In this document: piece by piece, positions 2,886 through 19,957 of the stretch | Layout: each line of letters starts with the position of its first letter | How positions within the stretch are numbered: position 1 is the stretch's first letter | From: Candidatus Omnitrophota bacterium | GTDB taxonomy: Bacteria; Omnitrophota; Gorgyraeia; Zapsychrales; Fredricksoniimonadaceae | Direction of reading: 5' to 3' | DNA length: 64,000 nucleotides | Assembly (NCBI GenBank): GCA_028870995.1 | Contig: JAGWOI010000001.1 | Span: 26,273-90,272 of the forward strand | Program-made: the position numbers and the translations under genes | Notes under the pieces: model-generated | The model's database searches: none | What the model was told of the DNA's origin: nothing | The model's input: only the letters and a program-made list of their open reading frames with translations

Positions 2886-4744
2886 AAACCAGATCCATTT
2901 TTTTAAGTTTAATCGTGTGCCTATGCTTGACGCCCACAGCCATGGCCCAGGAGGGCAAATTTTTAGACCATTTTAAGGGCATTCCGGTGCTGCAGGAAGG
3001 CCGCCTTAAACCCCTGGACACCTATGCGCGCAATCTGTTGATCCAGTTCTCTGGAAAGGACAGTTATGATCACGCCCCGGCAGCTGCTTGGCTCGCCAAA
3101 CTTTTGTTCACGCCGTTCCATGCCGCTGATGACAAGGTGTTCTTGATCAATAATCCCGAAATCGCAACGGCCTTGAACATCAAACCCGAAGCCGGGCGCC
3201 GTTACAGTTTCGCTGAATTAAAAGATGCCTTCCCCAAATTAGTGCAGTTAAAAGAGGAAGCCGCCAATATCGATGAACGCCAGCGCACCCTGGTGGAGAA
3301 TGAGATCATCCGGGTGGCCCAGAACGTGGAGCTTTACATTGATTTCTCCGAGGATTTCCTTTGGGCTTATCCTGACCAGGATTTTACCATCACCTCGCCT
3401 GAAATCAAAAAACAGTTGGGGCTTCCCCAGGACCAGAACCAATTCAGTTTTATTGATATGGCTTTTAATGCCGGTAAAATCAAAGATTTAATGCTGGGGC
3501 TTAAAAATAAATCTAAAGAACAGATTTTAGGGCCGCAACTTGAGTTGATGTCCGCGGTCAACAACATGGTCCATTGGACCAAGGATTATCAAAATTTGCC
3601 TTTTGAGGTGATTCCTCCGGCAGAGGGCAATGACTGGTTAAGCCCGTGGGACGCCATATCAGGTGGACTTTCCGAAGGTCAAAGGAAACTTATTGGGCTT
3701 TGGTATCAAATGGCCCAAGCCTATGCCGCAGGGAATTTCATCGATTTCGACATGGCTGCTCAATCTTATTTAGGGGCGGTGAAAGAAAATCTCAAGCCAA
3801 GACAGTTGAATATCATCCGCAAGTTTCCTCTGGAAATGACCTATGAAGCAGCCAAGCCGTTCTTGTGGGCCAGGATTTTCTATATTCTTGCTTTTATATT
3901 TTTTATCATCTCCTTTACCTCATCTAAAAAGGTCTGGTATGTTTTGGGGCTTTTATCCGTAGTGGCAGGTTTTATCCCGCATACTCTTGGGCTTGTGGCG
4001 CGGATTATCATCATGGCCAGGCCGCCGGTCACCAATCTTTATGAGACCTTTATCTTTGTCGGATTTATCAGCGTACTCCTAGGGCTTGGCATCGAGTATT
4101 TTAACCGGCGCTGGCTGGGCCTCGTTACGGCCGCCATTTGCGGCACCATCCTTTTATTCATTGCCGGGAGGTACAGTGCTGAAGGCGATACCCTCAAGAT
4201 GCTGGTGGCGGTCCTGAATTCCAATTTTTGGCTGGCGACCCATGTCACCACCATCACTATGGGTTATGGCGCCACGTGTGTGGCCGGGATATTGGGTCAC
4301 ATTTGGCTTATCCAGGCGAGCTTGGGCAAGAAGCGAGAGGTCCTGGATAATACGTATAAAACCACCTTGGGGATCATGGGGGTGGCGTTGACTCTGACAT
4401 TTTTAGGGACCAACCTGGGCGGCATCTGGGCCGACCAAAGCTGGGGCCGGTTTTGGGGCTGGGACCCCAAGGAAAATGGGGCCCTGATGATCGTGCTTTG
4501 GCTGGCGATCCTGTTCCATGCCAAGTTTGCCATGATGATCGATGATTTCGGCCTGGCCATCGGGTGTGTGATCAGCATGATGGTGGTCATGTGGGCCTGG
4601 TTCGGGGTGAATTTGCTGAGCATCGGCCTTCATTCTTATGGATTTACTTCGGGGATCGCCAATGCCCTGATCATATACGCCGCCGGAGAAATTGCGTTTA
4701 TCATCCTTACCGCTACATTAGTGATCCGCCGCAGATCTACGTAG
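2882..4744 (+). CDS. ccsA: Cytochrome c-type biogenesis protein CcsA/ResC (haem lyase, WWD domain) with a long N-terminal periplasmic extension
   Basis: 620 aa. Signal peptide, about 330 aa periplasmic region, then a polytopic domain with the tryptophan-rich WWD motif WGRFWGWDPKENGALMIVLWLAILFHAKF. Confidence 0.8.
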   Translation: MKTRSIFLSLIVCLCLTPTAMAQEGKFLDHFKGIPVLQEGRLKPLDTYARNLLIQFSGKDSYDHAPAAAWLAKLLFTPFHAADDKVFLINNPEIATALNIKPEAGRRYSFAELKDAFPKLVQLKEEAANIDERQRTLVENEIIRVAQNVELYIDFSEDFLWAYPDQDFTITSPEIKKQLGLPQDQNQFSFIDMAFNAGKIKDLMLGLKNKSKEQILGPQLELMSAVNNMVHWTKDYQNLPFEVIPPAEGNDWLSPWDAISGGLSEGQRKLIGLWYQMAQAYAAGNFIDFDMAAQSYLGAVKENLKPRQLNIIRKFPLEMTYEAAKPFLWARIFYILAFIFFIISFTSSKKVWYVLGLLSVVAGFIPHTLGLVARIIIMARPPVTNLYETFIFVGFISVLLGLGIEYFNRRWLGLVTAAICGTILLFIAGRYSAEGDTLKMLVAVLNSNFWLATHVTTITMGYGATCVAGILGHIWLIQASLGKKREVLDNTYKTTLGIMGVALTLTFLGTNLGGIWADQSWGRFWGWDPKENGALMIVLWLAILFHAKFAMMIDDFGLAIGCVISMMVVMWAWFGVNLLSIGLHSYGFTSGIANALIIYAAGEIAFIILTATLVIRRRST

Positions 4745-5607: not shown

Positions 5608-6675
5608 ATGCCGATGCCTGGTTCCTTTTTCCAACGATATGCCTTAGAGAAGACACTCAAGGAGTTGGCGGACATTAAGTTCGCCCTTGATGTGTCTTCG
5701 ATCGTGGCCATTACCGATCAAACGGGAAAGATCGTTTACGCCAACGACAAGTTCTGCGAGATTTCCAAGTACTCCCACGAAGAACTGCTCGGCCAGAATC
5801 ACCGCATCATCAATTCCGGTTATCATCCCAAGGAATTTTTCCGTGACCTGTGGCGGACCATCGCCCAAGGCAAGGTATGGACAGGTGAGATCTGCAACCG
5901 CGCCAAGGACGGATCGATTTATTGGGTGGATACCACGATTGTTCCCTTTCTAAACGATAGGGGCAAGCCGTTCCAATATGTTTCCATCCGCAACGAAATA
6001 ACCCAGCGCAAATTGATGGAAGATGAGATCAAGGCGATCCCCCAGCGCATCATCCAGGCCCAGGAGAGCGAAGCTAACCGCATCGCCAGGGACATCCACG
6101 ATGATTTGGGGCAGTCGCTGGCCACCTTAAAAATACTTATCCAATCCGCATGGATGCCGGATGTAAAGAATTTCCCTCAAGAGAAGAAAGACCATGAGAA
6201 GATCATCAACTATTTGAGCAGCATCATTGAAAAATCCCGCAACCTGGCCATGCGGTTGAGGCCTTCAACGCTCGACACCTTAGGGCTGACGACGGCCCTA
6301 AAGCTCATGTTCACCGAGATCAACCGCTCCAAGTCCTTGAAGGTAGAGTTCAGACATAATAAGATCGATCACTTGAAGTATGATTCTGAAGCCATTAATA
6401 TTTACCGTATCGTCCAGGAGGCTATGGGCAATTGTATCAAGCATGCTTCGGCCAGCCTGGTCAAGATTGATCTGCGTCTTGTCAAGGAGCGGTTAAAGAT
6501 CCGGATTACGGACAACGGCAAGGGTTTTGTCGTAACGGGAAAATCCAGCGGTTTGGGGCTGGTCACCATGAAGGAGAGGGTCATTCTTTTAGGGGGGGAC
6601 ATTAAAATCCAATCAGTGCCTAAAAAAGGCACCACTATTTCCATCAACATTCCAGTGAGGGGTAAAAAATCATGA
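5608..6675 (+). CDS. PAS-domain sensor histidine kinase, HisKA_3 (NarX/DegS) type
   Basis: N-terminal PAS fold. H-box IHDDLGQSLATLKI. C-terminal HATPase_c G-boxes (DNGKGF, GLGL). Confidence 0.8.
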   Translation: MPMPGSFFQRYALEKTLKELADIKFALDVSSIVAITDQTGKIVYANDKFCEISKYSHEELLGQNHRIINSGYHPKEFFRDLWRTIAQGKVWTGEICNRAKDGSIYWVDTTIVPFLNDRGKPFQYVSIRNEITQRKLMEDEIKAIPQRIIQAQESEANRIARDIHDDLGQSLATLKILIQSAWMPDVKNFPQEKKDHEKIINYLSSIIEKSRNLAMRLRPSTLDTLGLTTALKLMFTEINRSKSLKVEFRHNKIDHLKYDSEAINIYRIVQEAMGNCIKHASASLVKIDLRLVKERLKIRITDNGKGFVVTGKSSGLGLVTMKERVILLGGDIKIQSVPKKGTTISINIPVRGKKS

Positions 6676-7316
6676 GCGCTATCCGGGTCATATTGGCCGA
6701 TGATCATGCCATGCTGAGGTCAGGCTTAAGGGGTTTATTGGAGAAAAACCCTGATTTTAAAGTCGTCGGGGAAGCCGGCAACGGTGAGGTCCTGCTGGAC
6801 AAATTAAAAAGCACCAAGGTCGATTGCGTTGTTCTGGATCTGTCCATGCCCCTGATGGACGGTCTGGAAACCCTCAAGGAACTGCGCCAGCGCCACCCCA
6901 AGCTCAAGGTCCTGATACTGACCATGCAAAAAGATATCGACCATTTCAAGTACGCCATGGCCCACGGAGCCAACGGCTATGTCCTTAAAGACGGGGCTTT
7001 TGAACAACTGGTCATGGCCATCAAGATGGTCATGAAGGGCAAAAGTTTTGTGTCACCGGCGATTTCCGAATATATAACGGAGCAGTATGTGCGCTCCATC
7101 GAGGCGAGCGACGTTCCCTCCCTGGAAATCCTTACTAACCGCGAGAAACAGGTTCTAGCCCTTATCGTCAAGGGAGCGGCCAACAAAAACATCGCCTCTT
7201 CCTTGAAAATCAGCATCAGGACCGTCGAAACCCACCGTAGCCGCCTCATCCACAAATTGGGCATCAAGACCGCTGCCGGCCTGGTCAAATACGCCATGGC
7301 CAAGGGTCTGATTTGA
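6672..7316 (+). CDS. NarL/FixJ-family response regulator (receiver + LuxR HTH)
   Basis: RVILADDH...LDLSMP receiver motifs. C-terminal LuxR-type HTH (LTNREKQVLALIVKGAANKNIASSLKISIRTVETHR). ATGA overlap with the kinase gene. Confidence 0.85.
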   Translation: MSAIRVILADDHAMLRSGLRGLLEKNPDFKVVGEAGNGEVLLDKLKSTKVDCVVLDLSMPLMDGLETLKELRQRHPKLKVLILTMQKDIDHFKYAMAHGANGYVLKDGAFEQLVMAIKMVMKGKSFVSPAISEYITEQYVRSIEASDVPSLEILTNREKQVLALIVKGAANKNIASSLKISIRTVETHRSRLIHKLGIKTAAGLVKYAMAKGLI

Positions 7317-7436
7317 CCCCTCCGTCCTTCCTTAAGTGTTACTACGTACGGCCTTAAGTAGTTCACCCCATTCATATTTTCTCCTTTTGAGATTATCCTG
7401 TAAGTAGTTGAAGTGCCGTCTAAAAGGGTAGGATTT

Positions 7437-7814
7437 ATGACCGCTATATTGATCGTGGAAGACCATAAGGAATTCCGCGAGGCCATCAAAAAATTCATCA
7501 TCATGAAAGGCGTCAAGGCCGATATCCTGGAAGCCATGACCGCGGAGGAGGCCATGGGTATCGCCTCCTCCCATCGCCCCAAGGTCGTCATCATCGACAT
7601 CCATTTAACCAAAGGTGTCAGCGGCCTGGAGCTGGCTTCATCCATAAAGGCCAAAGACCCGTCCTGCAGCATCATCCTGTTGACCATGTATACCAACCAG
7701 GACATGAAACATCTGTGCAAGACCAAGGACGTGGAAGACTTTATCGATAAAAGCGACCTGGATGTCCGCCTGGTGCCGGCGATCAACCGTCTTTTAGCCC
7801 TGGAGAGGGCATAG
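7437..7814 (+). CDS. Stand-alone CheY-like receiver domain protein
   Basis: ILIVEDH...VVIIDIHL receiver signature with no output domain. Start taken at ATG 7437, which has an upstream AGGG. The overlapping 297-aa minus-strand ORF 6977..7870 is judged spurious. Confidence 0.65.
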   Translation: MTAILIVEDHKEFREAIKKFIIMKGVKADILEAMTAEEAMGIASSHRPKVVIIDIHLTKGVSGLELASSIKAKDPSCSIILLTMYTNQDMKHLCKTKDVEDFIDKSDLDVRLVPAINRLLALERA

Positions 7815-7829
7815 AGATTTCCCCAAAAA

Positions 7830-8837
7830 ATGAAGCTGGCAAGCTTGCATAACAAGATCCTTTTCAGCATGGTATCTTTGCTGCTGTTGCTGGGCTTTTT
7901 TATATGGCTGGTGACCCAAACTTTTTTGTTATCGCTTAAGACCAGCGTTTTCCAGTCGCTGCATTCGCTGCATTTGCTGATGCTGACGACGACCTTGGGG
8001 TTTGCCTTGCTCGGGATATTCCTGGCCTTTTACCTGTCGGGTCTCATCACCAAACCACTTTCACAGCTGGTCCAGGGGATAGAGGCGATCAAGAAGGGGG
8101 ATTTCTCAGGAAGGATCGATATCCGGACCGAAGACGAGATCGGGGTTCTGGCCGGTGCTTTCAATGAAATGAGTGACCGTTTGAACCTGCTTATCAGCGA
8201 GGTGACGGCCCTTGCCAAGTTCCGCGAGAGGGAGAAGATAGCCCTGGATTTCCATGACGGCTGCGCCCAGGACCTGGTCAGTCTTTTAAAAAGAATTGAA
8301 TTGTGTGAAAAACTGGTTGAGGCCAGATCTCCGGAGGCGCTGGTGGAATTGGGACTTTTGAGGGACTATACCAAGAATATTTTGACCTCCACCCGGAACA
8401 TGATCTGTGATTTGAAATCGAAGGAAGATTTCGAAGTGCCGTTGGTGGAGAAAATCAGCGGTTTCCTGAAGGATTATGAAAGGATCAATGGTTGTAAAGT
8501 CGCTTTCAACGCTTCGGGGCCGGTGACGGCCCTTTCATCGGACCAAAATGAACATTTATTTTATATCATCACGGAGGCCTTGAGCAATATAAGGAAACAC
8601 AGCAGGGCGCAAAAAGTGACGGTAAATATTAAATCCAGTTTGCAACACCTTGAAGTTACGGTGAAGGACAATGGCAAGGGTTTTGATGTGGCCGCAGAAA
8701 ATGCGGATGATCCCCATCGCAGGAAATTCGGCCTGATGGCGATGCGCCATAGGGCCCAGGCGATAGGCGCGCGGTTAAACATCCAGTCGACCATCGGCCG
8801 GGGAAGCGAAGTGGGCTTGGAGCTAGGAGTTAAATAA
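7830..8837 (+). CDS. Membrane sensor histidine kinase (HAMP + HisKA_3 + HATPase_c)
   Basis: Two N-terminal TM helices, a HAMP-like linker, H-box LDFHDGCAQDLVSL and the DNGKGF G-box. Confidence 0.8.
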   Translation: MKLASLHNKILFSMVSLLLLLGFFIWLVTQTFLLSLKTSVFQSLHSLHLLMLTTTLGFALLGIFLAFYLSGLITKPLSQLVQGIEAIKKGDFSGRIDIRTEDEIGVLAGAFNEMSDRLNLLISEVTALAKFREREKIALDFHDGCAQDLVSLLKRIELCEKLVEARSPEALVELGLLRDYTKNILTSTRNMICDLKSKEDFEVPLVEKISGFLKDYERINGCKVAFNASGPVTALSSDQNEHLFYIITEALSNIRKHSRAQKVTVNIKSSLQHLEVTVKDNGKGFDVAAENADDPHRRKFGLMAMRHRAQAIGARLNIQSTIGRGSEVGLELGVK

Positions 8838-9493
8838 TGTCACAAGTACGTGTCTTTTTATGCGATGACCACACCTTGTTCCGTCAAGGTGTCAAGAAGC
8901 TGCTGGATTTGGAAAAGGACATTAAGGTGGTGGGAGAAGCCGGCGATGCCTATCAAATGTTTGAGGCATTAAGGTCACTTGCCGTGGATATTGTACTTTT
9001 GGATATCAATATGCCCAAAATGGACGGGGTGAAGGCCACCTTCAGGATAAGGAAGGAACACCCGCATGTGGCGGTGGTCATTTTGACGGTCCATGAGGAT
9101 GAGCCTTATATTTTTCAGGCGATCAAGGCAGGTGCCATGGGGTATCTCCTTAAGGATGTGTCCATCAAGGAGTTGGCCGAAGCCGTGCGCAAGGTGTCTG
9201 AAGGGGAAGCCCTCCTTCAGCCGATCATTGCTTCAAAGGTTCTAAAAGAATTCGTGATGCTGGATAAAAGGAAGGCCAGGGAAGGCCAAAAGTCTGGCAG
9301 TAATTTAACGGCACGGGAAGAGGAAATCCTGAGGTTTATTGCCATGGGCGATTCAAACAAGGAGATTGCGCAAAAAATCGGGATTACCGAGAAGACCGTC
9401 AAAAACCATGTCAGCAATATCCTTACCTGTCTTCACGTGAACAACCGCACCCAGGCCGCCCTTTATGCTTTGGGTAAAACTCCGGCAACCTGA
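8837..9493 (+). CDS. NarL/FixJ-family response regulator (receiver + LuxR HTH)
   Basis: VFLCDDHTLFRQG...LLDINMP receiver. LuxR HTH LTAREEEILRFIAMGDSNKEIAQKIGITEKTVKNH. Confidence 0.85.
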   Translation: MSQVRVFLCDDHTLFRQGVKKLLDLEKDIKVVGEAGDAYQMFEALRSLAVDIVLLDINMPKMDGVKATFRIRKEHPHVAVVILTVHEDEPYIFQAIKAGAMGYLLKDVSIKELAEAVRKVSEGEALLQPIIASKVLKEFVMLDKRKAREGQKSGSNLTAREEEILRFIAMGDSNKEIAQKIGITEKTVKNHVSNILTCLHVNNRTQAALYALGKTPAT

Positions 9494-9764: not shown

Positions 9765-10811
9765 ATGAACATCCTGGCGGTTGGAATCAATCATAAGACC
9801 TCGTCTATAGATATTAGGGAAAGGTTCTTTTTACAGCCTCTTGAGCGGGAATTGCTTGTAAACGAGCTGCTAAAGGACCCGCGCATCATTGAGGCTTTTG
9901 TCCTGTCAACCTGCAACCGGACGGAAATTTATGCCAATGCGATCGAGGACCAGCCGCAGCTGCTGATGAAGGCGTTGTTTAAAATCAAGAAGGTTCCCTT
10001 AAGTGCCGATCTGGCCGGTCATTTTTATACCCTGTCATCCCGCCAGGCCATTGACCACCTGTTGCGGGTGACCACGGGGTTGGATTCTCTGGTGGTGGGT
10101 GAAAAACAGATTTTAGGCCAGGTTAAGGAGGCTTTTGAATTCTCCAGAAGCAAAGGCGCATTGAGCAAAACTTTTAATGTTCTTTCCAATCTGGTGGTGC
10201 AGACCGGCAAAAAAGCCCGACATGAGACGCAGATCGATTTTGGCGGTTCATCGGTCAGCTGGGCGTCGGTCATGATGGCGCAGGATATTCTGGGTTCATT
10301 GCAGGACAAAGCTGTCTTGATTTTGGGCTCAGGCAAAATGGGCCGCTTGGCTGTGGAGCAGCTGGCTAAAAAGGGTGTGGCCAAGATCTATATCATGAAT
10401 AGGACGATCGAAAAAGCCCAGGAATTGGCCCGCGAAAGCGGCGGGATAGCCGTGGGCATTTGGGACATCAAGGAAATCCTGCAGCAGGTCGATGCCTGCA
10501 TCTGCTCGGCCAGCTGCACGCACCATTTAATAGAGAAGGACCTGGTGGAAGCCGCCATGGCCGCCCGGCCGTCCCGTCCCTTGGTATGCATCGATATCTC
10601 CATGCCCCGCAATATTGCGCCTGAGGTGGCGGAAGTGGGGAATGTACGCCTGGCGACGGTGGATGACTTGGACAGGATCGTGGAGAGCAATATGCAAAAG
10701 CGGATGTCGGCCGTCGCCCTGGTGGAAGGTCTGATCGACCGGAAGATCGATGAATTCTACAAAACTATGGAGAAGATTACCCTAATCAAGGAGGAATTAT
10801 GGAAAGCTTAA
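9765..10811 (+). CDS. hemA: Glutamyl-tRNA reductase
   Basis: MNILAVGINHKTSSIDIRERF...STCNRTEIY, with the conserved catalytic Cys in TCNR, and an NADP-binding GSGKMG Rossmann motif. Confidence 0.9.
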   Translation: MNILAVGINHKTSSIDIRERFFLQPLERELLVNELLKDPRIIEAFVLSTCNRTEIYANAIEDQPQLLMKALFKIKKVPLSADLAGHFYTLSSRQAIDHLLRVTTGLDSLVVGEKQILGQVKEAFEFSRSKGALSKTFNVLSNLVVQTGKKARHETQIDFGGSSVSWASVMMAQDILGSLQDKAVLILGSGKMGRLAVEQLAKKGVAKIYIMNRTIEKAQELARESGGIAVGIWDIKEILQQVDACICSASCTHHLIEKDLVEAAMAARPSRPLVCIDISMPRNIAPEVAEVGNVRLATVDDLDRIVESNMQKRMSAVALVEGLIDRKIDEFYKTMEKITLIKEELWKA

Positions 10812-11077
10812 AAACACTGGTGGTCACGTTGTTCGGATTGGGCCTTGTCTTTTGGGCTGCCTCGAGCCAGGCGGATATTGCTCAGATGAAAGCCTATAAG
10901 GAAGTTTATCCCGATGCCAAGCCCAAATGCATCGATTGTCATGTGGACAAGATGCCCAAGAAGGCGGACGGGGCCCATGATCCTAATGATTACGGCAAGG
11001 CCGTCATCAAAGCGGCCGGTGCGGAAAAGCCGACAGCCGATACCTATAAAAAGGTAGGACCTATTCCTACAAAGTAA
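10799..11077 (+). CDS. Small secreted monohaem c-type cytochrome
   Basis: 92 aa with a signal peptide and a single CIDCH haem-binding motif. Overlaps the hemA stop by 13 nt. Confidence 0.65.
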   Translation: MESLKTLVVTLFGLGLVFWAASSQADIAQMKAYKEVYPDAKPKCIDCHVDKMPKKADGAHDPNDYGKAVIKAAGAEKPTADTYKKVGPIPTK

Positions 11078-11124: not shown

Positions 11125-11892
11125 ATGATCGGACAGAAAAAGTCACTGGTTGTATTCTTGGCGGCACTTGGGTTGTTTTGGGTAACAGGACTATCTTTAT
11201 CCCAAGCGGACCAGAACAAGGTCAATGAGATGTTGTATTTAAAGAAAGCCAAGTATGTAGGTATGGACACCTGCGCAATGTGCCATGAGAAGGAGGTAAA
11301 GGAATACAAGCTCTCAACGCACGCGCGTATCCATATCAAGAACGATACCACCGGTGCCGAGGATTGCGAGGTCTGTCACGGCCCGGGCAGCGTCCATGTG
11401 GATGCTTCCGGCGGTAAAGGTAATATCATCAATCCTTCCAAGGATCCGGAAATATGTTTTAACTGCCATACAGATAAAAAGATGCAATTCCGCCTGCCTT
11501 ATCATCATCCAGTTCTGGAAGGCAAGATGAGCTGCACGGATTGCCACAATCCCCACGGGATCGATGTCCGTCCCTGGACCGCCACTTCTGAGAACGGTAT
11601 CAATGAGGTGTGTTTCAAGTGCCATACGGACAAACGCGGTCCTTATATCTGGCAGCATGATGCTTTGAAAGACGGCTGTACGTCATGCCATCAGGTGCAT
11701 GGTTCGGTTAATGACAAAATGCTGATCGCGAGAGACTATAACCTGTGTTTGCGCTGCCATGCCATGAATAATTTCCCCTATGGCCATGGCCAGAACGGCC
11801 AATACCATGATTTTGTTTATGGGACTTGCTGGAGCGCAGGATGCCATTCAGAACCTCACGGGTCTAATTTTGATCATTATTTTCGTTATTAA
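11125..11892 (+). CDS. Periplasmic multihaem c-type cytochrome with 7 CxxCH motifs plus one CX4CH
   Basis: Signal peptide. Motifs CAMCH, CEVCH, CFNCH, CTDCH, CFKCH, CTSCH, CLRCH and CWSAGCH within 255 aa. The size and haem density resemble periplasmic partners of porin-cytochrome conduits. Confidence 0.8.
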   Translation: MIGQKKSLVVFLAALGLFWVTGLSLSQADQNKVNEMLYLKKAKYVGMDTCAMCHEKEVKEYKLSTHARIHIKNDTTGAEDCEVCHGPGSVHVDASGGKGNIINPSKDPEICFNCHTDKKMQFRLPYHHPVLEGKMSCTDCHNPHGIDVRPWTATSENGINEVCFKCHTDKRGPYIWQHDALKDGCTSCHQVHGSVNDKMLIARDYNLCLRCHAMNNFPYGHGQNGQYHDFVYGTCWSAGCHSEPHGSNFDHYFRY

Positions 11893-11907
11893 CAGAGAGG
11901 ATAAAAC

Positions 11908-14070
11908 ATGAAAATTCTTCGGATTTTACTCTCAATCATGGTGGCATCGTACATGACACAAGTAGGCTATCTGGCATTGGCCCAGGATGTGGGCACTTCG
12001 CCTTTCAGCGTCACTTTCGAGCCGCTGCAGTACGCTTATGTCAAAGGCAATGTGGGAAAATTCCAGGCGCTTAATTGGATGAAGGCCGGTGAGAACCCGG
12101 GAGCCAGTGATATAAGTTTTGTTAAGCAGATCAACAAGGACATTTCCGTGGAAGCCGAGGGGAGCGTGTTTCCCAAAACCGATGACGGTACTGGACATCT
12201 GGTCCTGCAGGACGGGGATCTGGCCTTTTTGCAGGTGGATTATAAGGCCTTTAGAAAATGGTATGACGGTACAGGCGGATTTTATCCAAATAATGTCTAT
12301 ACTCTCAGCACCTATGTTGCGCCGCCGGGTGTTTCCACCTTTACAAATTATGGCACCATCACCGTAAATCAGGGCGCCCAACCTAACAGCCCTGCGCTGC
12401 AGATGGACATCAGTTATTTCAAATTGGAAGCGGGTTTAGGGCCGATCAGCGACCCTTATTTGGACATCGCCTATGAACACAATACCAAGAACGGCGATAA
12501 GTCGCTTCTGGAGTGGACTCCTGTCTATGTACCAGGTCAAACCGCATCAGGTGCCGAGAGGAAAATTGGTCCGGCATGGGGATCATTCAACGATTATGTT
12601 GATACCATCACCTTAAAGGAAAAGAAGGAGATCGCCGGTGTCACTCTCAAAGGAGAGCAAAAGGCAGAAATTGATTACAATAACGATATCAAGTACATGC
12701 AGTATCTGAATGATACCGTTTCCGGACAGCCGAATCAACTGAACACCTTTAATGAATCTCCGGATGCCAAGCTTTTCGGCGCAGGGGTCAGGGCGGAAAA
12801 ATGGATGCTTAATGACAATACCTATGCTGCGTTGGGGTATCATTACAACCATATCCATGACACCGACCTGATGCAGCAGGCTGAGTTTACCTCCACCGAT
12901 GGCGTTGTTTATACTGCCTATGCGGGCGGCACCTCGGGATGGAATTATTCGAAGGCGTCGGAAGATGACCATGTCTGGGTGGGCAACCTTAATTCCAATC
13001 TGACGAAGAATTTGTCCCTGCTTACCGATGTCAGGTATGAACATCAGGGCACGGAGGGAGATTCTACCTATTATGCGACCGGTAGTTCGGGGGTATATGA
13101 CTCCAATATGGCCAACCATGAAGATCAAACAGGGGAGCATATTGGGTTACGTTATTTTGGCATCCCGCATACCAGTCTATATATGGATGGTGAATGGCAA
13201 CAGGACAGAAACTGGGTCGATGAGTCGTATATCGCTCTTTCAGGGTCGACAAGGAATACTTTCTCCAACCTGGAGAGGCTCAATAGGACCCAGAAAGAAT
13301 CATGGACCGTGGGAGGTAGGATTTATCCCAACAGGTTCTTTATTTTTTCAACCCAGGTCAGGGCCCATAATCAATACAGCGGTTATGATACGATTTCGAA
13401 TCCTGACGCAAGCGGTGTTGTTTTAATGAGTTCCCTTAGGGAAAAAGGCGTGGATGAGACCTCCACCCTTACCTGGAAACCGTTTCGATGGATTCAAAAT
13501 TCCTTAAAATATCAGTTTTCTGATACGGTTTATAACCCCCGGTTGGATCCGTCAGCCGGCGGAAGCAGCGACCCCCTGCCTGCATCGGGAAATTACAATA
13601 TCAGTGAAAACCATATGCTGACTTCAGCATTCACGTACGATATCACCGTGCAGCCCATTGATCCTTTGCTGCTGATGTTGTCCTATTCCCACGTGGAGAA
13701 TTATGTCAGAACGATAGGCGCCGCTGACACAGGGACGATTGCGGAGGGTGGCCCTACCTATATCCCTGTTTTCAATTCAGGGGACAACAGCTGGCTTTTT
13801 TCGACCACGTATTGTCCGTCAGATAATTGGGACTGGACCAACACGGTCAGCTATACGATTTCGAATAATTACGTCGATTCCGGCGACGGCGTTCCTTATG
13901 GTTCTGATTTCAAGATGTTCAATTTTACATCGGGCCTGGAATACAAGTACCATCATTGGCTCAAGATCAGTCCCCAGTATGAATATGCCGCTTACAAGGA
14001 TAATCCTGTGGCAGGGGCAGGCAACTATTCGGCCAATATTTTTATCTTGAAGGCAGGATTTGACTGGTAA
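11908..14070 (+). CDS. Putative outer-membrane beta-barrel protein (porin-like, 720 aa), candidate conduit component
   Basis: Signal peptide. Composition rich in Y/G/N/T/S/D with alternating hydrophobic residues. C-terminal strand ends ...ILKAGFDW with a terminal aromatic residue. Sits between cytochrome genes. Confidence 0.55.
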   Translation: MKILRILLSIMVASYMTQVGYLALAQDVGTSPFSVTFEPLQYAYVKGNVGKFQALNWMKAGENPGASDISFVKQINKDISVEAEGSVFPKTDDGTGHLVLQDGDLAFLQVDYKAFRKWYDGTGGFYPNNVYTLSTYVAPPGVSTFTNYGTITVNQGAQPNSPALQMDISYFKLEAGLGPISDPYLDIAYEHNTKNGDKSLLEWTPVYVPGQTASGAERKIGPAWGSFNDYVDTITLKEKKEIAGVTLKGEQKAEIDYNNDIKYMQYLNDTVSGQPNQLNTFNESPDAKLFGAGVRAEKWMLNDNTYAALGYHYNHIHDTDLMQQAEFTSTDGVVYTAYAGGTSGWNYSKASEDDHVWVGNLNSNLTKNLSLLTDVRYEHQGTEGDSTYYATGSSGVYDSNMANHEDQTGEHIGLRYFGIPHTSLYMDGEWQQDRNWVDESYIALSGSTRNTFSNLERLNRTQKESWTVGGRIYPNRFFIFSTQVRAHNQYSGYDTISNPDASGVVLMSSLREKGVDETSTLTWKPFRWIQNSLKYQFSDTVYNPRLDPSAGGSSDPLPASGNYNISENHMLTSAFTYDITVQPIDPLLLMLSYSHVENYVRTIGAADTGTIAEGGPTYIPVFNSGDNSWLFSTTYCPSDNWDWTNTVSYTISNNYVDSGDGVPYGSDFKMFNFTSGLEYKYHHWLKISPQYEYAAYKDNPVAGAGNYSANIFILKAGFDW

Positions 14071-14082
14071 AGGTTATGAACA

Positions 14083-15582
14083 ATGAGCTCAAAACCAGCC
14101 AAACAACGGTTCGACGACAGTTTTTATAACAACATCACCTATATCGGTGTAGTCTTATCGTTGTTTGTGCTGGTTTGCGAGCTCTTTTTGTTCGCCATTG
14201 ATTTTGCCTCTCCGCGGCCCAGCGTTTATCTGGGGCTGATCACGTATTGTTTTCTGCCGCCGCTTTTGATCCTCGGGCTTATCTTAATCCCGACAGGCGC
14301 CCTTCTTAAGCGAAAACACATTCTTCATTCAGGAAAACCGCGGCCGATCCTGATTGATCTTTCCCTGGCGACCCATCAAAATGCCGTGGTGATTTTCATG
14401 ATCGGCACGGTGCTGCTCTTGGTCATGACTGCCATCGGTTCCTACAAGGCTTTCAATTACACGGAATCGACCGGGTTTTGCGGGTTGACCTGCCATCAGA
14501 TCATGAAACCCGAATATACGACACATAGCCATTCCCCCCATGAGCGGGTCAGGTGTGTTGAGTGCCATGTCGGATCAGGAGCGGATTGGTACCTGCGTTA
14601 TAAGATGGCCGGGACCAAGATGGTGGTCAAAACTTTCGACGGCAGGTATCATCGTCCCACCCCGGCGCCTCTCCAGAACCTGCGTCCGGCCAAGGAGATC
14701 TGTGAACAGTGTCATTGGCCGGGTAAATTGTTCAGCGCGGTATTGCTCAATAAGGTTTATTATGCCGATGATCCGACCCAGACCCCGCCATGGAAGATCA
14801 ACCTGCTGATGCGTGTCGGTGCCGGCAAGGTCGGTGGTGCGGGGGTTCACGCCCACATGTATTTTAGCAATGAGATTTTTTACGTGGCTGATGATGCTAA
14901 GCGGCAGAATATCACCTGGGTCAAGACGATCGACAAGGCTGGCAAGGTTACCATCTACACGACCAAGGATTCACCTTATAAAAAAGTCAACCCGCCACAG
15001 GACAAGGTCCGCCGGATGGATTGCATTGACTGCCATAACCGCGCCACGCACCGTTTCGAGGCGCCGGATGTACTCATGAACCGCGCCTTGGCCCAAGGCG
15101 CTATCAGCTCTTCCATTCCCATGATCAAGTCCGAAGGCGTTGAAGTACTGGGCAAGACCTATAGCTCCACTGCCGCCGCGGAAAAACAGATCCGCGAGGG
15201 CTTGATGGATTATTACAGTAAGAAGCAGCCTGGCTATTTCGCCGGCCACCAGGCCGCTGTCGAGAATGCCATTGCCGAGATCATCCGTTTGTACCGCAAG
15301 AATTTCTTTCCGGAAATGAAATCCCGCTGGGACGCCTATCCGGACAACATCGGGCACATGATTTCGTTGGGCTGTTTCCGGTGCCATGACAATGAGCACA
15401 AGTCCGCGGGCGGCCGGGTGATTTCTCGGAAATGCACCCTTTGCCATGTCATCGTGGAACAGGGCAGCGGCACCTCGACCGAGAAGAATCTGGAGGGGCT
15501 GGAATTTAAGCATCCTTTCAACGATCCCGGTGATGACTCATGGAAGACGGCCAATTGCTCAGACTGCCATACCGGAAGTTAG
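14083..15582 (+). CDS. Membrane-anchored heptahaem c-type cytochrome (NapC/NirT-related, ImcH-like architecture)
   Basis: Three N-terminal hydrophobic helices, then CGLTCH (CX3CH), CVECH, CEQCH, CIDCH, CFRCH, CTLCH and CSDCH. Confidence 0.7.
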   Translation: MSSKPAKQRFDDSFYNNITYIGVVLSLFVLVCELFLFAIDFASPRPSVYLGLITYCFLPPLLILGLILIPTGALLKRKHILHSGKPRPILIDLSLATHQNAVVIFMIGTVLLLVMTAIGSYKAFNYTESTGFCGLTCHQIMKPEYTTHSHSPHERVRCVECHVGSGADWYLRYKMAGTKMVVKTFDGRYHRPTPAPLQNLRPAKEICEQCHWPGKLFSAVLLNKVYYADDPTQTPPWKINLLMRVGAGKVGGAGVHAHMYFSNEIFYVADDAKRQNITWVKTIDKAGKVTIYTTKDSPYKKVNPPQDKVRRMDCIDCHNRATHRFEAPDVLMNRALAQGAISSSIPMIKSEGVEVLGKTYSSTAAAEKQIREGLMDYYSKKQPGYFAGHQAAVENAIAEIIRLYRKNFFPEMKSRWDAYPDNIGHMISLGCFRCHDNEHKSAGGRVISRKCTLCHVIVEQGSGTSTEKNLEGLEFKHPFNDPGDDSWKTANCSDCHTGS

Positions 15583-17177
15583 GTCCGGGGGCCTTTTTTT
15601 TATTGTTCCTGACGGCCTTCCCGGCACTGGCCCAGCAGCCGTCCACGGGATCCGTTAAGTTTACCAATCAGGACTGCCTGAGCTGTCATGCCGACGGAGC
15701 CCCCATCGTTGACCAGAAAATTTTTGGCCATTCCGTCCACGGGAAGCTTAATTGCACGGATTGCCACCGTAGCATCACCGACCTTCCACATGCGGAAAAA
15801 CTCCCGAAGGTCGATTGTGCGGTTTGCCATAAGAAGGAGGCCGTGCTTTGGCAGCACAGCGGCCATGCCCAGGCCCTTGGCAACGGTGCCCTGAAAGCTC
15901 CTTCTTGTGAATTTTGTCACGGGACGCATGGTATCACGAAGGCAACTGACAGGCAGTCCCGGTTGTATTGGGCTAATATCCCAGCCATTTGCGGCCAATG
16001 CCACTTCCAAGAGTATAAGGAATACCGTCGAGGTATTCATGGACAGGCCCTGGCCTCCGGCAGCAGGGATGCTCCCGTGTGCACCGATTGCCATGGGGAG
16101 CACGATATCGCTGCTGTTAAGGGAGGAGCTTCCTGGGTTTCCGCGGCCCGTATTCCTCAAACCTGCGGGCAATGCCACTCGGCGGAACGTATCAACAGCA
16201 AGTACAATCTGGCCTCGAACGTTTTAGGAAGCTACATGCAAAGCTATCATGGTCTTGCCATGCAGCAGGGGACCATGACCGCTGCCAACTGCGCTTCCTG
16301 CCATGGGGCGCATGAGATCCTTCCTTCGTCGGACCCGCGCTCCACCATCAATCCCAAGAATTTGGAAAAAACCTGCGGCCGGTGCCATCCCGGCATTGGC
16401 GCCCGGGTGGCCAGCGCCAAAATTCATGAAAGTTTTCAGCCGGGCAATAACCCCCTTAACGATTGGGTAAGCCGTTTTTATATCTTCTTTATCATTTTTG
16501 TCTCAGGTATCCTTTTGCTGCACAATGTCCTGGATTTCTCCAAAAAAGCCCGGGCCCATTACCGGAATTCCATGGGAAAAGGAGCCGAGTATATGGGTTT
16601 TAACGAGCGCTGCCAGCATTTTATCCTGGCCATGACCTTTATCCTTCTGGCGTACACTGGATTTTCCATCAAATTTCCCCAAACTTGGTGGTCATTCATG
16701 TTTTTTGGACACACCGATTGGCTGCGTTGGGGGCACCGCAGTGTTGCCGTCGTCTTTTGCTTGCTGGGCGCCTACCATTTTACCTATTTGTTTTTTACCC
16801 CCAAGGGCCGGTGGCAACTCAAGGCGTTGAGCGTCAGGAAGACGGACTTTGTCCAGTTTTGGCAGAGCTTTCAATATTATTTTGGCCGGCGGGAAGATAA
16901 GCCGCGCAGCAGCGGCATTTACAGTTATGTGCAAAAGCTGGAGTATTGGGCCCTGTTGTGGGGAGGCATGGTGATGGTGCTGACCGGTGCGCTCATGTTC
17001 AACGAAGTCTGGTTTTTCAGCTTATTTCCCAAATGGCTGTATGACGTGGTTAGGACGGTTCACCTGTACGAGGCCATCCTGGCCTGCGTGACCATTGTCA
17101 TCTGGCACGGTTATTTTGTTATTTTCGATCCTGAGATTTACCCCGGCAAAGGGTCATGGCTTCATGGACGGGAGTAG
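15540..17177 (+). CDS. Nonahaem c-type cytochrome fused to a dihaem b-type cytochrome membrane domain (CbcL-like quinol oxidoreductase)
   Basis: Signal peptide. Nine CxxCH motifs (CLSCH, CTDCH, CAVCH, CEFCH, CGQCH, CTDCH, CGQCH, CASCH, CGRCH). A C-terminal domain of about 240 aa with five TM helices carrying conserved His residues, of the HydC/FdnI (Ni/Fe-hydrogenase b-type cytochrome) type. Confidence 0.75.
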   Translation: MEDGQLLRLPYRKLGPGAFFLLFLTAFPALAQQPSTGSVKFTNQDCLSCHADGAPIVDQKIFGHSVHGKLNCTDCHRSITDLPHAEKLPKVDCAVCHKKEAVLWQHSGHAQALGNGALKAPSCEFCHGTHGITKATDRQSRLYWANIPAICGQCHFQEYKEYRRGIHGQALASGSRDAPVCTDCHGEHDIAAVKGGASWVSAARIPQTCGQCHSAERINSKYNLASNVLGSYMQSYHGLAMQQGTMTAANCASCHGAHEILPSSDPRSTINPKNLEKTCGRCHPGIGARVASAKIHESFQPGNNPLNDWVSRFYIFFIIFVSGILLLHNVLDFSKKARAHYRNSMGKGAEYMGFNERCQHFILAMTFILLAYTGFSIKFPQTWWSFMFFGHTDWLRWGHRSVAVVFCLLGAYHFTYLFFTPKGRWQLKALSVRKTDFVQFWQSFQYYFGRREDKPRSSGIYSYVQKLEYWALLWGGMVMVLTGALMFNEVWFFSLFPKWLYDVVRTVHLYEAILACVTIVIWHGYFVIFDPEIYPGKGSWLHGRE

Positions 17178-17179
17178 GT

Positions 17180-19957
17180 ATGCTGGCCGCAATTTTGAAT
17201 ATTATTGTTCTTTTATTTCTGTCAGGAATGCCGGTCTGTGCCCAGACAGCGGGCTCTAACCCGGCCGCCCCCGCCAAGGCCGCGACCGGCAATGATGATT
17301 GCCTGGCCTGCCACGCCGATGCCAGTCAGGCGCCGTTTGTTGATCAGGATAAATTTAAGGCTTCGGTGCATGGCAGGCAGTTGTGCACGGATTGCCACAT
17401 CGATTTAATCGGGAGTGATTTTCCCCATAAAACACCTTTGCCGGTCGATTGCGGCCGCTGCCATGCCGGACAAAAGGCTTTGTTTGCCGCCAGTATCCAC
17501 GGCCAGGCCCTGGCCCATGGGGACAAACTGGCGCCACGGTGCGTTAACTGCCATGGAAATCATTATATCCTTCCGGTTAAGAGCAGAAATTCTCAGGTAG
17601 CGCCGCTGAACATTCCTTTTGTCTGCGGTTCCTGCCATAGCGAGGGCAAGCCGGTTTCAGAGCAGCGGCAGATCCCCGAACATCATATCCTGGAAAATTA
17701 TTCCGAGAGCATGCACGGTGAAGCCCTTCTTAAAAAGGGTTTGAGCGTCACCGCCACCTGCGCCTCCTGCCACCGGGCCCACGAGATCCTGCCTCCCGCG
17801 GACCCGCGTTCTTCCATCGCCCGCGGCAATATCGTCAAGACCTGCTTGCAATGCCACAGCCAGATCGAGAAGGTGCACCGTAAGATCATCAAAGGCGAGT
17901 TGTGGGAAAAAAGCCCGCAGAGCATTCCGGTCTGTGTGGACTGCCATCAGCCTCATAAGATACGCAAGGTTTATTATGCAGCCGGGGAGGCCGACAAGGA
18001 TTGTTTGACCTGTCACGGCAAGAAGGATATTGTTTCTTCCAAGGATCACCGTTCGCTTTATGTCGATGAGAACCAGCTCAGTAATTCCATCCATGCCAAG
18101 GTGGCCTGCGCCCAGTGCCATGCCCAGGTTTCAGTTTCTCATGCAAGGCCTTGCGAAACCATCACCAAAAAAGTGGATTGCTCGATCTGCCATAGCCAGC
18201 AGGTCGAACTTTACCAGCAGGGGATCCATGGCAAATTGTTCAATGCCGGCAATCCCAATGCGCCTTCGTGTGCGGAGTGTCACGGCACCCACGGCATCCT
18301 GTCGCATAAAAATATTAATGCGCCCACCTATCCGACCCATATTCCCGGTCTTTGCGGCCGCTGCCACCGCGAGGGCAAGCAGGCCGCCGTGCTCTACAAA
18401 GGGACCGAACATAATATTCCTAAAAATTATGTGGAAAGCATTCATGGCAAGGGCCTGCTGCAAAGCGGGCTGGTGGTGACCGCGACCTGCGTCAGCTGCC
18501 ATACGGCCCACAAGCAGCTTCCTGCCTCTGATCCCGGCTCCACGGTGAACCGCAACAATATCGCATTGACTTGTTCAGCCTGCCACCAGGGCGTCTATGA
18601 GCAATACGTCAAGAGCGTGCATGCCGTGGACGGCGGCAAGAATTCCGGCAAGCTGCCCGTGTGTAATGACTGTCACACGGCACATACCATCAAAAGGACG
18701 GACCAGAACGCCTTTAAATTCGGGATCATGAACACCTGCGGTAAGTGCCATCGGGCCATTGCCGAGACGTACTTCCAGACGGTGCATGGGAAAATTTCCA
18801 AGTTGGGCTACACGAAGGCCGCCAAATGCCAGGATTGTCACGGTTCCCACCAGATTTACCGGGTGACCGATCCGCGCTCAACGTTGAGCCGTCAGAACAT
18901 CGTGCATACCTGCCGGCAATGCCATCAAGGCGCCACCCGACGTTTTGCCGGTTACCTGACCCATGCCACCCACCATGACCCCAAGAAATACCCTTGGATA
19001 TTCTGGACCTTCTGGTGCATGACCGCCTTGCTGGTGGGCACTTTCAGTGTCAGCCTGTTGCACACCTTGTTGTGGCTGCCCAAATCTCTGGAAATGCGAA
19101 GGCTTTATCCGCAAAAGCACATTGTTTCCAAGGAAAAGCAGTATGTGCGTTTCCCGGTGTTCTACCGCATCCTGCACATCATCATGATCATCAGTTTTAT
19201 GACGCTGACCACCACCGGCATGACACTGAAATTTTCTTATGCACATTGGGCGCAGTTTGTTTCAAGGGTCCTGGGCGGTTTCGCGGTCACCGGTTTTCTG
19301 CACCGCTGCGCGGCGGTGGCGTTGTTGGGCATTTTTGCGGCCCATATCTGGCAGGTGTTCAATCAAAAACGTACCGAAAACAAGAGCCTGAAGCAAATTC
19401 TTTTCGGTCCTGACAGCATTCTCTTTGCCAGGAAGGATTGGCGTGAATTTTTGGCCACCGTAAAGTGGTATGCCGGCAAAGGTCCGTACCCGCAATACGG
19501 CAAGTGGACCTACTGGGAAAAATTTGATTATTTTGCCGTTCTGTGGGGGATCATGGTCATAGGCACCTCGGGGCTGATGCTGTGGTTTCCCGAGGGCTTC
19601 ACCCATTTCCTGCCGGGATGGGTCATCAATGTCGCCACCATCATTCATAGCGACGAAGCCTTGCTGGCCGCGGGTTTTATTTTTACCGTGCATTTCTTCA
19701 ACACCCATTTCAGGCCGGAGAAATTCCCCATGGACACGGTGATCTTCACCGGGCGTATGTCCGTCGAGGACCTGAAGCGCGAGCGGCCCAAGGAATACGA
19801 GGCCCTGATGGCCAACGGAGAGCTTGAAAAGAACCTGGCCGAGCCGCTGTCACCGGCAAGGATCCTGGCCATCCGCATCTTCGGCTGGACCGCGCTTTCC
19901 ATCGGATTGGTGCTGGTTATGTGCATCATCTACACCATGATCTTCGGTTACAGGTAA
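17180..19957 (+). CDS. 19-haem c-type cytochrome fused to a dihaem b-type cytochrome membrane domain (extended CbcL-like protein)
   Basis: Start placed at ATG 17180, which follows a GGGAG motif. The ORF-track start at 17156 overlaps the upstream stop. 19 CxxCH motifs counted from CLACH to CRQCH. C-terminal 5-TM His-containing b-type domain from about 18983. Confidence 0.75.
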   Translation: MLAAILNIIVLLFLSGMPVCAQTAGSNPAAPAKAATGNDDCLACHADASQAPFVDQDKFKASVHGRQLCTDCHIDLIGSDFPHKTPLPVDCGRCHAGQKALFAASIHGQALAHGDKLAPRCVNCHGNHYILPVKSRNSQVAPLNIPFVCGSCHSEGKPVSEQRQIPEHHILENYSESMHGEALLKKGLSVTATCASCHRAHEILPPADPRSSIARGNIVKTCLQCHSQIEKVHRKIIKGELWEKSPQSIPVCVDCHQPHKIRKVYYAAGEADKDCLTCHGKKDIVSSKDHRSLYVDENQLSNSIHAKVACAQCHAQVSVSHARPCETITKKVDCSICHSQQVELYQQGIHGKLFNAGNPNAPSCAECHGTHGILSHKNINAPTYPTHIPGLCGRCHREGKQAAVLYKGTEHNIPKNYVESIHGKGLLQSGLVVTATCVSCHTAHKQLPASDPGSTVNRNNIALTCSACHQGVYEQYVKSVHAVDGGKNSGKLPVCNDCHTAHTIKRTDQNAFKFGIMNTCGKCHRAIAETYFQTVHGKISKLGYTKAAKCQDCHGSHQIYRVTDPRSTLSRQNIVHTCRQCHQGATRRFAGYLTHATHHDPKKYPWIFWTFWCMTALLVGTFSVSLLHTLLWLPKSLEMRRLYPQKHIVSKEKQYVRFPVFYRILHIIMIISFMTLTTTGMTLKFSYAHWAQFVSRVLGGFAVTGFLHRCAAVALLGIFAAHIWQVFNQKRTENKSLKQILFGPDSILFARKDWREFLATVKWYAGKGPYPQYGKWTYWEKFDYFAVLWGIMVIGTSGLMLWFPEGFTHFLPGWVINVATIIHSDEALLAAGFIFTVHFFNTHFRPEKFPMDTVIFTGRMSVEDLKRERPKEYEALMANGELEKNLAEPLSPARILAIRIFGWTALSIGLVLVMCIIYTMIFGYR

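Follow-up and report, generated by a model that had tools for sequence, protein, structure and literature searches.

A putative Mtr-type porin–cytochrome conduit with an octahaem cytochrome, linked to ImcH-like and CbcL-like genes in Candidatus Omnitrophota

A gene pair encoding a multihaem c-type cytochrome and an outer-membrane beta-barrel was analysed in a stretch of 64,000 nt (hereafter the window; all positions refer to it) from a metagenome-assembled genome (MAG) of Candidatus Omnitrophota (GCA_028870995.1, contig JAGWOI010000001.1, positions 26,273–90,272 of the forward strand). The original prediction, made by reading the DNA alone, had proposed a porin–cytochrome pair of the MtrAB type without asserting homology to any known family. 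The gene order, the spacing and the coordinates proved exact, and the proposal was supported in that homology can now be asserted for both partners, from the sequence for MtrA and from profiles for MtrB. The pair comprises the following elements:

11125–11892, + strand: gene for an MtrA-like octahaem cytochrome, 255 aa, ending with the stop codon TAA
11893–11907, + strand: intergenic spacer of 15 nt carrying a GAGAGGA Shine-Dalgarno sequence for the barrel gene; coupling of the operon type
11908–14070, + strand: gene for an MtrB-like barrel, 720 aa, from a divergent family outside PF11854 and TIGR03509

The barrel is 100% identical to the NCBI protein MDE2221481.1 (KGK03_00225), and the NCBI label for the barrel, the 255-aa cytochrome and a 92-aa cytochrome encoded upstream of them is in each case ‘hypothetical protein’. 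Promoter-like sites in the surrounding cytochrome cluster numbered 12, versus 11.5 in shuffled sequence, and terminator-like sites showed a modest excess (21 versus 12.4 ± 4.4).

The 255-aa cytochrome starts with an N-terminal Sec signal peptide (...SLSQA/DQ) and contains 16 cysteines, seven CX2CH motifs and one CX4CH motif (CWSAGCH, residue 235). The earlier count of eight haems was thus confirmed for seven sites and holds for the eighth provided that haem is bound at CX4CH. Haem attachment to CX4CH has a precedent in Desulfovibrio cytochrome c3, and the site in the window protein is expected to be occupied. Twelve histidines were counted outside the haem motifs, sufficient for all eight haems to have bis-His ligation. 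When all PDB sequences were searched using phmmer, the sole match was MtrA (6R2Q_A; E 2.9e-36), which was covered in two colinear stretches. HMMER aligned haems 1–4 of the window protein with haems 1–4 of MtrA and haems 3–8 with MtrA haems 5–10, and these two overlapping alignments indicate that one internal haem pair is absent from the window cytochrome. The CX4CH site aligned with haem motif 10 of MtrA, whose haem forms the extracellular end of the wire in 6R2Q. Among curated models, TIGR03508 (DmsE/MtrA decahaem) matched at 162 bits (E 1.8e-47) and NF041028 at 174 bits (cut-off 325). The combination of seven CX2CH and one CX4CH was retained in 114 of the 116 full-length database homologues, with the consensus C[WF]S[AG]GCH at the terminal site. 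The family reaches 1862 database clusters at E ≤ 1e-10 and is essentially without names in public databases. Judged by these alignments, the protein is a true MtrA homologue lacking one internal haem pair.

The 720-aa protein carries a signal peptide (...LALA/QD), contains a single cysteine, is rich in Gly, Ser, Thr, Tyr and Asn, and ends with ...LKAGFDW, in agreement with the signal peptide, barrel composition and terminal aromatic residue that had been read from the sequence. An exhaustive profile search recovered 734 family representatives at 50% identity (E ≤ 1e-3), 274 of them at E ≤ 1e-30, with lengths mostly of 660–720 aa. The AlphaFold2 model, built from a 106-sequence alignment, is an all-beta barrel with a mean pLDDT of 87.9 and a pTM of 0.83. 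Its 26 strands, each at least 10 residues long, span residues 33–719 and start right after the signal peptide; no plug is present, and turns of 2–7 residues alternate with longer loops. This strand number is well above the 16 or so below which the conduit reading was to count as refuted, and it equals that of the solved MtrB structure, as cited in PMC12133095. The size is also near that of the MtrB class (695 aa in MtrB), as had been noted, and the published Geobacter porin–cytochrome barrels are much smaller.

Remote homology was examined by profile–profile comparison using hhalign. The MtrB query was checked against 6R2Q_B (1399 bits), and this S. baltica chain sequence then retrieved PF11854 members, whose alignment (A3) holds Shewanella sequences only. 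The alignment of the barrel family (A2) was compared with MtrB and with controls:

A2 versus the Shewanella MtrB family (A3): 97.3%, E 2.7e-11
A2 versus the single MtrB sequence (6R2Q_B): 94.4%, E 9.3e-8
A2 versus E. coli LptD (26 strands): 1.3%, E 0.039
A2 versus E. coli FhuA: 0.5%, E 0.11
A2 with reversed profiles on either side: 0.5–0.6%, E about 0.1

The A2–A3 match placed window residues 455–719 on MtrB residues 390–694, in register to both C-termini, and with a relaxed alignment threshold it was colinear across 606 columns. The low values for LptD, FhuA and the reversed profiles argue that the match does not reflect generic beta-barrel periodicity. The structural comparison agreed: a Foldseek search of the whole PDB with the barrel model gave MtrB (6R2Q_B) as the best match (E 2.1e-10, TM 0.59/0.64), and TM values to TonB-dependent receptors (TBDTs) were 0.29–0.44. 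A TonB receptor or an autotransporter, the two non-conduit families raised at the outset, is not indicated, since no Pfam or NCBIfam model matched, no plug was found, the FhuA control was negative, and the barrel fits neither the architecture of a plug plus 22 strands nor that of a passenger plus 12 strands. An N-terminal CxxC (C42, C45) that is invariant in Shewanella MtrB (A3) is lacking in the window barrel, and it may not be a defining trait of the wider MtoB/PioB group. According to the profiles and the model, the barrel protein is remotely homologous to MtrB and lies outside the detectable range of the curated MtrB_PioB models.

Related loci were collected by scanning one genome per species with an alignment of the closer barrel relatives as query, which yielded 32 loci (denoted L with a number). 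Three of them (L016, L026 and L028) end at the start of the barrel gene, and 29 of the 32 keep upstream DNA. In all 29, the gene immediately 5′ of the barrel gene has the 7 + 1 haem pattern, at barrel identities down to 22–24%, and the pairing is therefore not due to chance. Every complete cytochrome partner in the related loci carries seven or eight CX2CH motifs and one CX4CH motif. Identity to the window proteins is 40–82% for the cytochrome, by far the better conserved of the two, and 22–80% for the barrel, and the gap between the two genes is 3–58 nt where both open reading frames (ORFs) are delimited; in L005 the called ORFs overlap. The loci are mostly from Omnitrophota, with one Syntrophales MAG, one Lentisphaeria MAG and several entries labelled ‘uncultured Planctomycetales’, and several barrel homologues come from bog metagenomes. 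The entries titled ‘uncultured Planctomycetales bacterium’ (TPA binchicken MAGs; L005, L007, L008, L014, L017–L019 and others) show the same gene order and 50–60% identity to Omnitrophota, and their titles probably reflect a taxonomic labelling issue rather than real spread.

Two further features were observed among the relatives. A lipobox-like signal (LLAC, FVAC and IISC, respectively) is present on the octahaem cytochrome of L030 (7093–7914), L035 (7159–7974) and L038 (1024–1857), the most distant loci (Syntrophales, Lentisphaeria and a fused type described below); in these loci, unlike in the window, the cytochrome may be a lipoprotein. Such a motif occurs in only 6 of the 116 close homologues. 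The other feature is a barrel subgroup in which one or two monohaem domains of PF07635 (PSCyt1, ‘Planctomycete cytochrome c’) are fused to the N-terminus:

P0116, P0131, P0139, P0150 and about 25 other representatives: PSCyt1–barrel fusions, 770–914 aa

In the one locus of this fused type that was examined (L038, 1024–4613), the barrel gene is again directly preceded by an ORF of 277 aa with the 7 + 1 haem pattern, which the gene caller had overlooked.

Six cytochrome genes on the same strand at 10.8–20.0 kb are the only plausible haem-motif genes in the 64-kb window. None of the six carries a lipobox, and no ORF of the window encodes a surface or lipoprotein multihaem cytochrome of the MtrC type, in line with the earlier remark that no outer-surface lipoprotein cytochrome was evident in the cluster. 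The features around the pair are as follows:

1785–4744, + strand: System II cytochrome c maturation genes, ResB-like at 1785–2885 (PF05140) and CcsA-like at 2882–4744 (PF01578); also present in L001–L003
9765–10811, + strand: hemA, glutamyl-tRNA reductase of haem biosynthesis (GlutR_N/Shikimate_DH), in syntenic position and upstream in most loci
10799–11077, + strand: small secreted monohaem c-type cytochrome, 92 aa, with a CIDCH motif, a signal peptide and a conserved distal His in ‘DGxH[DE]’
14083–15582, + strand: ImcH-like inner-membrane heptahaem cytochrome, 499 aa
15540–17177, + strand: CbcL/MtoC-like fusion of nine CX2CH motifs and a membrane dihaem b domain (PF01292)
17156–19957, + strand: large CbcL-like fusion, 933 aa, with 19 CX2CH motifs and a C-terminal cytochrome b membrane domain

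The protein encoded at 14083–15582 has three N-terminal hydrophobic helices, one CX3CH motif (CGLTCH, residue 133) beside the membrane domain and six CX2CH motifs. Its N-terminal region is of the NapC/NirT type and NrfH-like (Pfam, NCBIfam), and NCBI names it ‘NapC/NirT family cytochrome c’. Published ImcH proteins are about 495–519 aa long, with three N-terminal transmembrane segments, one CX3CH near the membrane and about six CX2CH (PMC6295460); by these published features, the window protein is classed as ImcH-like and is a candidate quinol oxidase. The ORF at 15540–17177 matched Ni_hydr_CYTB/PF01292 (5.2e-14) and TIGR01583 (1.3e-12, formate dehydrogenase gamma-like), and CbcL has been described as a nine-haem c domain fused to a dihaem cytochrome b of the HydC/FdnI type (PMC6295460). 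The start at 15540 overlaps the ImcH-like gene by 43 nt, so the true start is probably downstream; the exact ORF sequence is absent from the protein collection. The start at 17156 similarly overlaps the preceding gene by 22 nt, and the real start probably lies further downstream. Orthologues of this 933-aa, 19-haem fusion occur in L010, L012 and L014 at 75–80% identity.

The 92-aa cytochrome belongs to a well-conserved family with the motif KPKCIDCHVDKMPKK...DGxH[DE]xN[DS]YGK; no Pfam family and no PDB relative were detected for it, and it is a candidate periplasmic electron shuttle. A weak match to the barrel-fused PSCyt1 domain was obtained (hhalign 48%, 33 columns around the haem motif). 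Besides the window copy at 10799–11077, instances in L001, L011 and L014 were singled out. Tandem pairs occur in some loci, and an extra copy precedes the ImcH-like gene in L001, L004 and L007.

The same surroundings recur elsewhere. Most loci have hemA and one or two copies of the 92-aa cytochrome gene ahead of the pair. Of the 32 loci, 22 carry an ImcH-like gene 3′ of the barrel gene, and in 16 it is the very next gene. Alternative haem-motif genes found directly after the barrel gene encode a 162–177-aa four-haem membrane anchor of the NrfH type (L004, L007 and L010) or a 406–412-aa secreted nine-haem cytochrome (L001 and L015), which is followed by a Rieske/cytochrome b complex in L001. 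The interchangeable gene after the barrel suggests modular rewiring of the inner-membrane end. In the neighbourhoods covered, which extend at most 10 kb to either side, cytochrome and haem-synthesis genes recur, joined in some loci by regulators.

At 5608–9493, in the interval that separates the cytochrome maturation genes from hemA, the window holds two pairs of histidine kinase (HK) and LuxR-type response regulator (RR) genes, one with a PAS and one with a HAMP domain, as well as an orphan receiver. L002 and L003 have one HK/RR pair plus an orphan receiver in syntenic position, and the two-component genes of the window are candidate regulators of the cytochrome cluster. A radical-SAM gene is also located upstream of the cluster, and anaerobic ribonucleotide reductase genes followed by housekeeping genes lie downstream.

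Taken together, we assign a probability of about 0.75 to the reading that the pair forms a two-component Mtr-type conduit across the outer membrane, wired to the quinol pool and favouring outward respiratory electron flow. The cytochrome would be inserted in the barrel and would conduct electrons across the membrane, with the 26-strand MtrB-like barrel sheathing and insulating the eight c-type haems of the MtrA-like chain. This chain would have its innermost haems on the periplasmic side and the CX4CH haem, equivalent to haem 10 of MtrA, at the cell exterior. In the proposed route, quinol would be oxidised at the inner membrane by the ImcH-like heptahaem cytochrome and the two CbcL-like c/b fusions, and electrons would cross the periplasm probably via the 92-aa monohaem cytochrome before passing through the octahaem wire and out of the cell. 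With no gene for an MtrC-like surface cytochrome close by, direct contact with the acceptor would fall to the terminal haem. Likely acceptors would be soluble or chelated Fe(III) or Mn, humic or particulate organic matter, or a partner cell; the occurrence of homologues in bog metagenomes makes humic or particulate organic acceptors as plausible as iron. A wire of eight haems would be shorter than the ten-haem MtrA, yet its length seems plausible for an outer membrane, since the periplasmic OmaB of Geobacter is also octahaem (PMC4245776). The genes for haem synthesis and cytochrome c maturation that flank the cluster provide a supportive context.

The outward direction is favoured on three grounds. 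ImcH homologues have been reported from Fe(III) reducers alone and are regarded as quinol oxidases (PMC6295460), anaerobic ribonucleotide reductase is encoded in the window, and ‘metal-reducing cytochromes’ were flagged in 10 of 23 Omnitrophia species by Seymour et al. (PMC10066038).

Several results weigh against this reading. The cytochrome has eight haem sites rather than the ten of MtrA and falls below the TIGR03508 cut-off (162 versus 192.2 bits). The barrel matched no Pfam or NCBIfam model at E ≤ 0.1, the curated MtrB/PioB models PF11854 and TIGR03509 included, and ten distant barrel relatives yielded only one sub-threshold, out-of-register match to the MtrB/PioB model (16.5 bits). Profiles of the barrel family matched nothing among PDB sequences, not even MtrB, and it took profile–profile comparison to bring out the homology. 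Finally, a small monohaem cytochrome and the lack of an MtrC-like protein would also fit the MtoAB/MtoD arrangement of Fe(II) oxidisers.

The last point leads to the alternative that survives best, although we consider it unlikely: the same hardware may run in reverse, as in MtoAB or PioAB, taking up electrons from extracellular Fe(II), another reduced solid or a partner cell and passing them through the monohaem cytochrome, in a role like that of MtoD, and the inner-membrane cytochromes to the quinone pool. As in the two-component Mto and Pio systems, no surface decahaem cytochrome is encoded in the window. The order of monohaem cytochrome, MtrA-like cytochrome, barrel and NapC-type cytochrome mirrors the mtoD-mtoA-mtoB-cymA order of Sideroxydans. 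Proteins of the CbcL/MtoC type occur in both reducers and oxidisers (PMC6295460), and L001 and L006 carry a Rieske/cytochrome b complex between the barrel and the ImcH-like gene. Against uptake stands the restriction of ImcH homologues to Fe(III) reducers and their presumed quinol oxidation, as cited above. The window was found to contain no genes for a terminal oxidase, a nitrate reductase or carbon fixation, and the 92-aa cytochrome is without detectable similarity to solved structures, which would include MtoD if that protein is among them. The available part of PMC10066038 reports diverse respiratory pathways and ‘metal-reducing cytochromes’ for Omnitrophia and, in that part, does not mention iron oxidation. 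Outward flow through the conduit thus remains the favoured direction.

A second alternative, that the pair is a DmsEF-like module feeding a separate extracellular or surface terminal reductase, is judged very improbable. In Shewanella, DmsEF feeds dimethyl sulfoxide (DMSO) reductase. The closest NCBIfam model for the cytochrome is indeed named ‘DmsE family decahaem’, and an Mtr-type pair without MtrC would suit such a module. Nevertheless, no gene for a molybdoenzyme or another reductase lies beside the pair in the window or in the gene-listed related contexts, in which the recurrent neighbours within 10 kb are those already named. That the 720-aa protein is an ordinary transporter or porin, TonB-dependent-like or a substrate channel, merely located beside cytochrome genes, is likewise judged very improbable, given the lack of a plug, TonB box or TBDT Pfam domain, the hhalign values of 0.5% for FhuA and 1.3% for LptD versus 97.3% for MtrB, the whole-chain TM of 0.59–0.64 to MtrB versus 0.29–0.44 to TBDTs, and an adjacency to the MtrA homologue that is invariant over deep divergence, the PSCyt1-fused L038 included.

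Among known systems, one close counterpart of the proposed conduit is the MtrAB core of the Shewanella MtrCAB complex (6R2Q). The two share a homologous cytochrome, a remotely homologous barrel of 26 strands and similar length (720 versus 695 aa), the cytochrome-then-barrel order, tight coupling of the genes and presumably the mechanism of a haem wire insulated by a barrel. They differ in that the Shewanella cytochrome has ten haems and ends with CX2CH rather than CX4CH, and in that its barrel is detected by curated models and carries the N-terminal CxxC, neither of which applies to the window barrel. Shewanella, a proteobacterium, further employs the surface cytochromes MtrC/OmcA and the inner-membrane CymA; the Omnitrophota window encodes no such surface cytochrome and has ImcH-like and CbcL-like proteins instead.

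The MtoAB(-MtoD-CymA/MtoC) systems of Sideroxydans and Gallionella and PioAB of Rhodopseudomonas are likewise of two components without a surface cytochrome, and their clusters include a small monohaem cytochrome gene, an inner-membrane multihaem enzyme of the quinone pool and CbcL/MtoC-type fusions. In contrast to the window proteins, MtoA and PioA are decahaem (PMC4245776), and MtoB and PioB are recognised by PF11854. Their hosts are aerobic or phototrophic iron oxidisers, whereas the window has an ImcH-like inner-membrane partner, of a type reported from reducers alone.

The Geobacter porin–cytochrome (Pcc) systems (OmaB-OmbB-OmcB and ExtABCD) also combine an eight-haem periplasmic cytochrome with a barrel, and they use ImcH and CbcL for inner-membrane entry, so that in functional terms they follow the same scheme as the one proposed here. 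However, their barrels have 18–22 predicted strands and are much smaller (PMC4245776), an outer lipoprotein cytochrome is normally part of the cluster, and none was found in the 64-kb window. Pcc proteins were reported to be phylogenetically unrelated to Mtr (PMC4245776), to which both window proteins show homology. The window pair is not a Geobacter Pcc and is set apart from it by the published Pcc description.

The EET2–EET4 clusters of peat Acidobacteriota and Verrucomicrobiota, compared by description only, are similar in coming from uncultured bog lineages, PVC relatives included, and in the synteny of a porin with an MtrA-like cytochrome; they were described with 8–13 haems and low identity to model systems (bioRxiv 10.64898/2026.05.27.727921, May 2026). 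They differ by the extracellular cytochromes in the clusters, and Omnitrophota lay outside that study. A link to cytochrome clusters of Desulfovibrio ferrophilus, suggested by Seymour et al., was rejected because those clusters are without a porin; the authors of the D. ferrophilus work likewise noted no apparent porin–cytochrome conduit.

With Cyc2, the fused monohaem cytochrome–porin of Fe(II) oxidisers, the PSCyt1-fused relatives offer an analogy only, the window barrel being unfused. The Cyc2 barrel is small, with about 16 strands, and no MtrA-like partner of Cyc2 is known. The PSCyt1-fused relatives differ in keeping a barrel of 26-strand size, and L038 keeps the octahaem partner upstream.

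A literature search found no publication describing this Omnitrophota gene pair. New features are the octahaem cytochrome with a conserved terminal CX4CH, the position of the barrel outside PF11854, the link to ImcH and the occurrence in Omnitrophota; the idea of sequence-divergent Mtr-like conduits was already emerging with the May 2026 preprint (bioRxiv 10.64898/2026.05.27.727921). An earlier survey reported no mtrAB or mtoAB genes adjacent to imcH (PMC6295460), unlike the locus analysed here, where an Mtr-type pair adjoins an ImcH-like gene. Coupling of a Shewanella-type outer conduit to Geobacter-type inner-membrane modules would thus be feasible. The statement that ‘All identified MtrA/MtoA/PioA possess 10 hemes’ (PMC4245776) meets a large natural exception in this family, which bears on the minimal length of a wire across the outer membrane.

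The uncultured Omnitrophota occur worldwide, and knowledge of their energy metabolism rests largely on inference. Prior surveys reported only ‘metal-reducing cytochrome’ homologues (PMC10066038) and isolated ImcH and CbcL homologues (PMC6295460). The present locus would supply the missing outer-membrane step in a complete, co-linear chain from quinol to the cell surface, and Omnitrophota probably exchange electrons with substrates outside the cell. Mtr-type conduits would accordingly reach well beyond Proteobacteria in a form unrecognised by Pfam and NCBIfam/PGAP. As curated models miss the barrel family, surveys based on them probably underestimate conduit capacity, and a profile of the family offers a ready marker for metagenomes from bogs, lakes and groundwater.

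As a tentative extension, the family may represent a distinct and widespread conduit lineage, characterised by an octahaem cytochrome with an invariant terminal CX4CH and a barrel outside PF11854, in which no surface cytochrome is used and the outermost haem makes the catalytic contact; we regard this as possible but rather doubtful. If true, the outermost CX4CH haem would be the contact for soluble or humic acceptors, or for a partner cell in direct interspecies electron exchange, and the PSCyt1–barrel fusion would mark the periplasmic docking site for the small cytochrome, which in the window has a gene of its own. Host-dependent traits have been inferred for small-celled Omnitrophota by Seymour et al. 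(PMC10066038).

Two minor observations concern the rest of the window. Some related MAG names resemble those of magnetotactic surveys, and no magnetosome family was found among the 26 window ORFs covered by a general Pfam scan. A second outer-membrane barrel, Alginate_exp (PF13372, E 6e-64), is encoded at 29354–30670; it has no relation to the conduit pair and lies a few kb upstream of polysaccharide deacetylase and glycosyltransferase genes.

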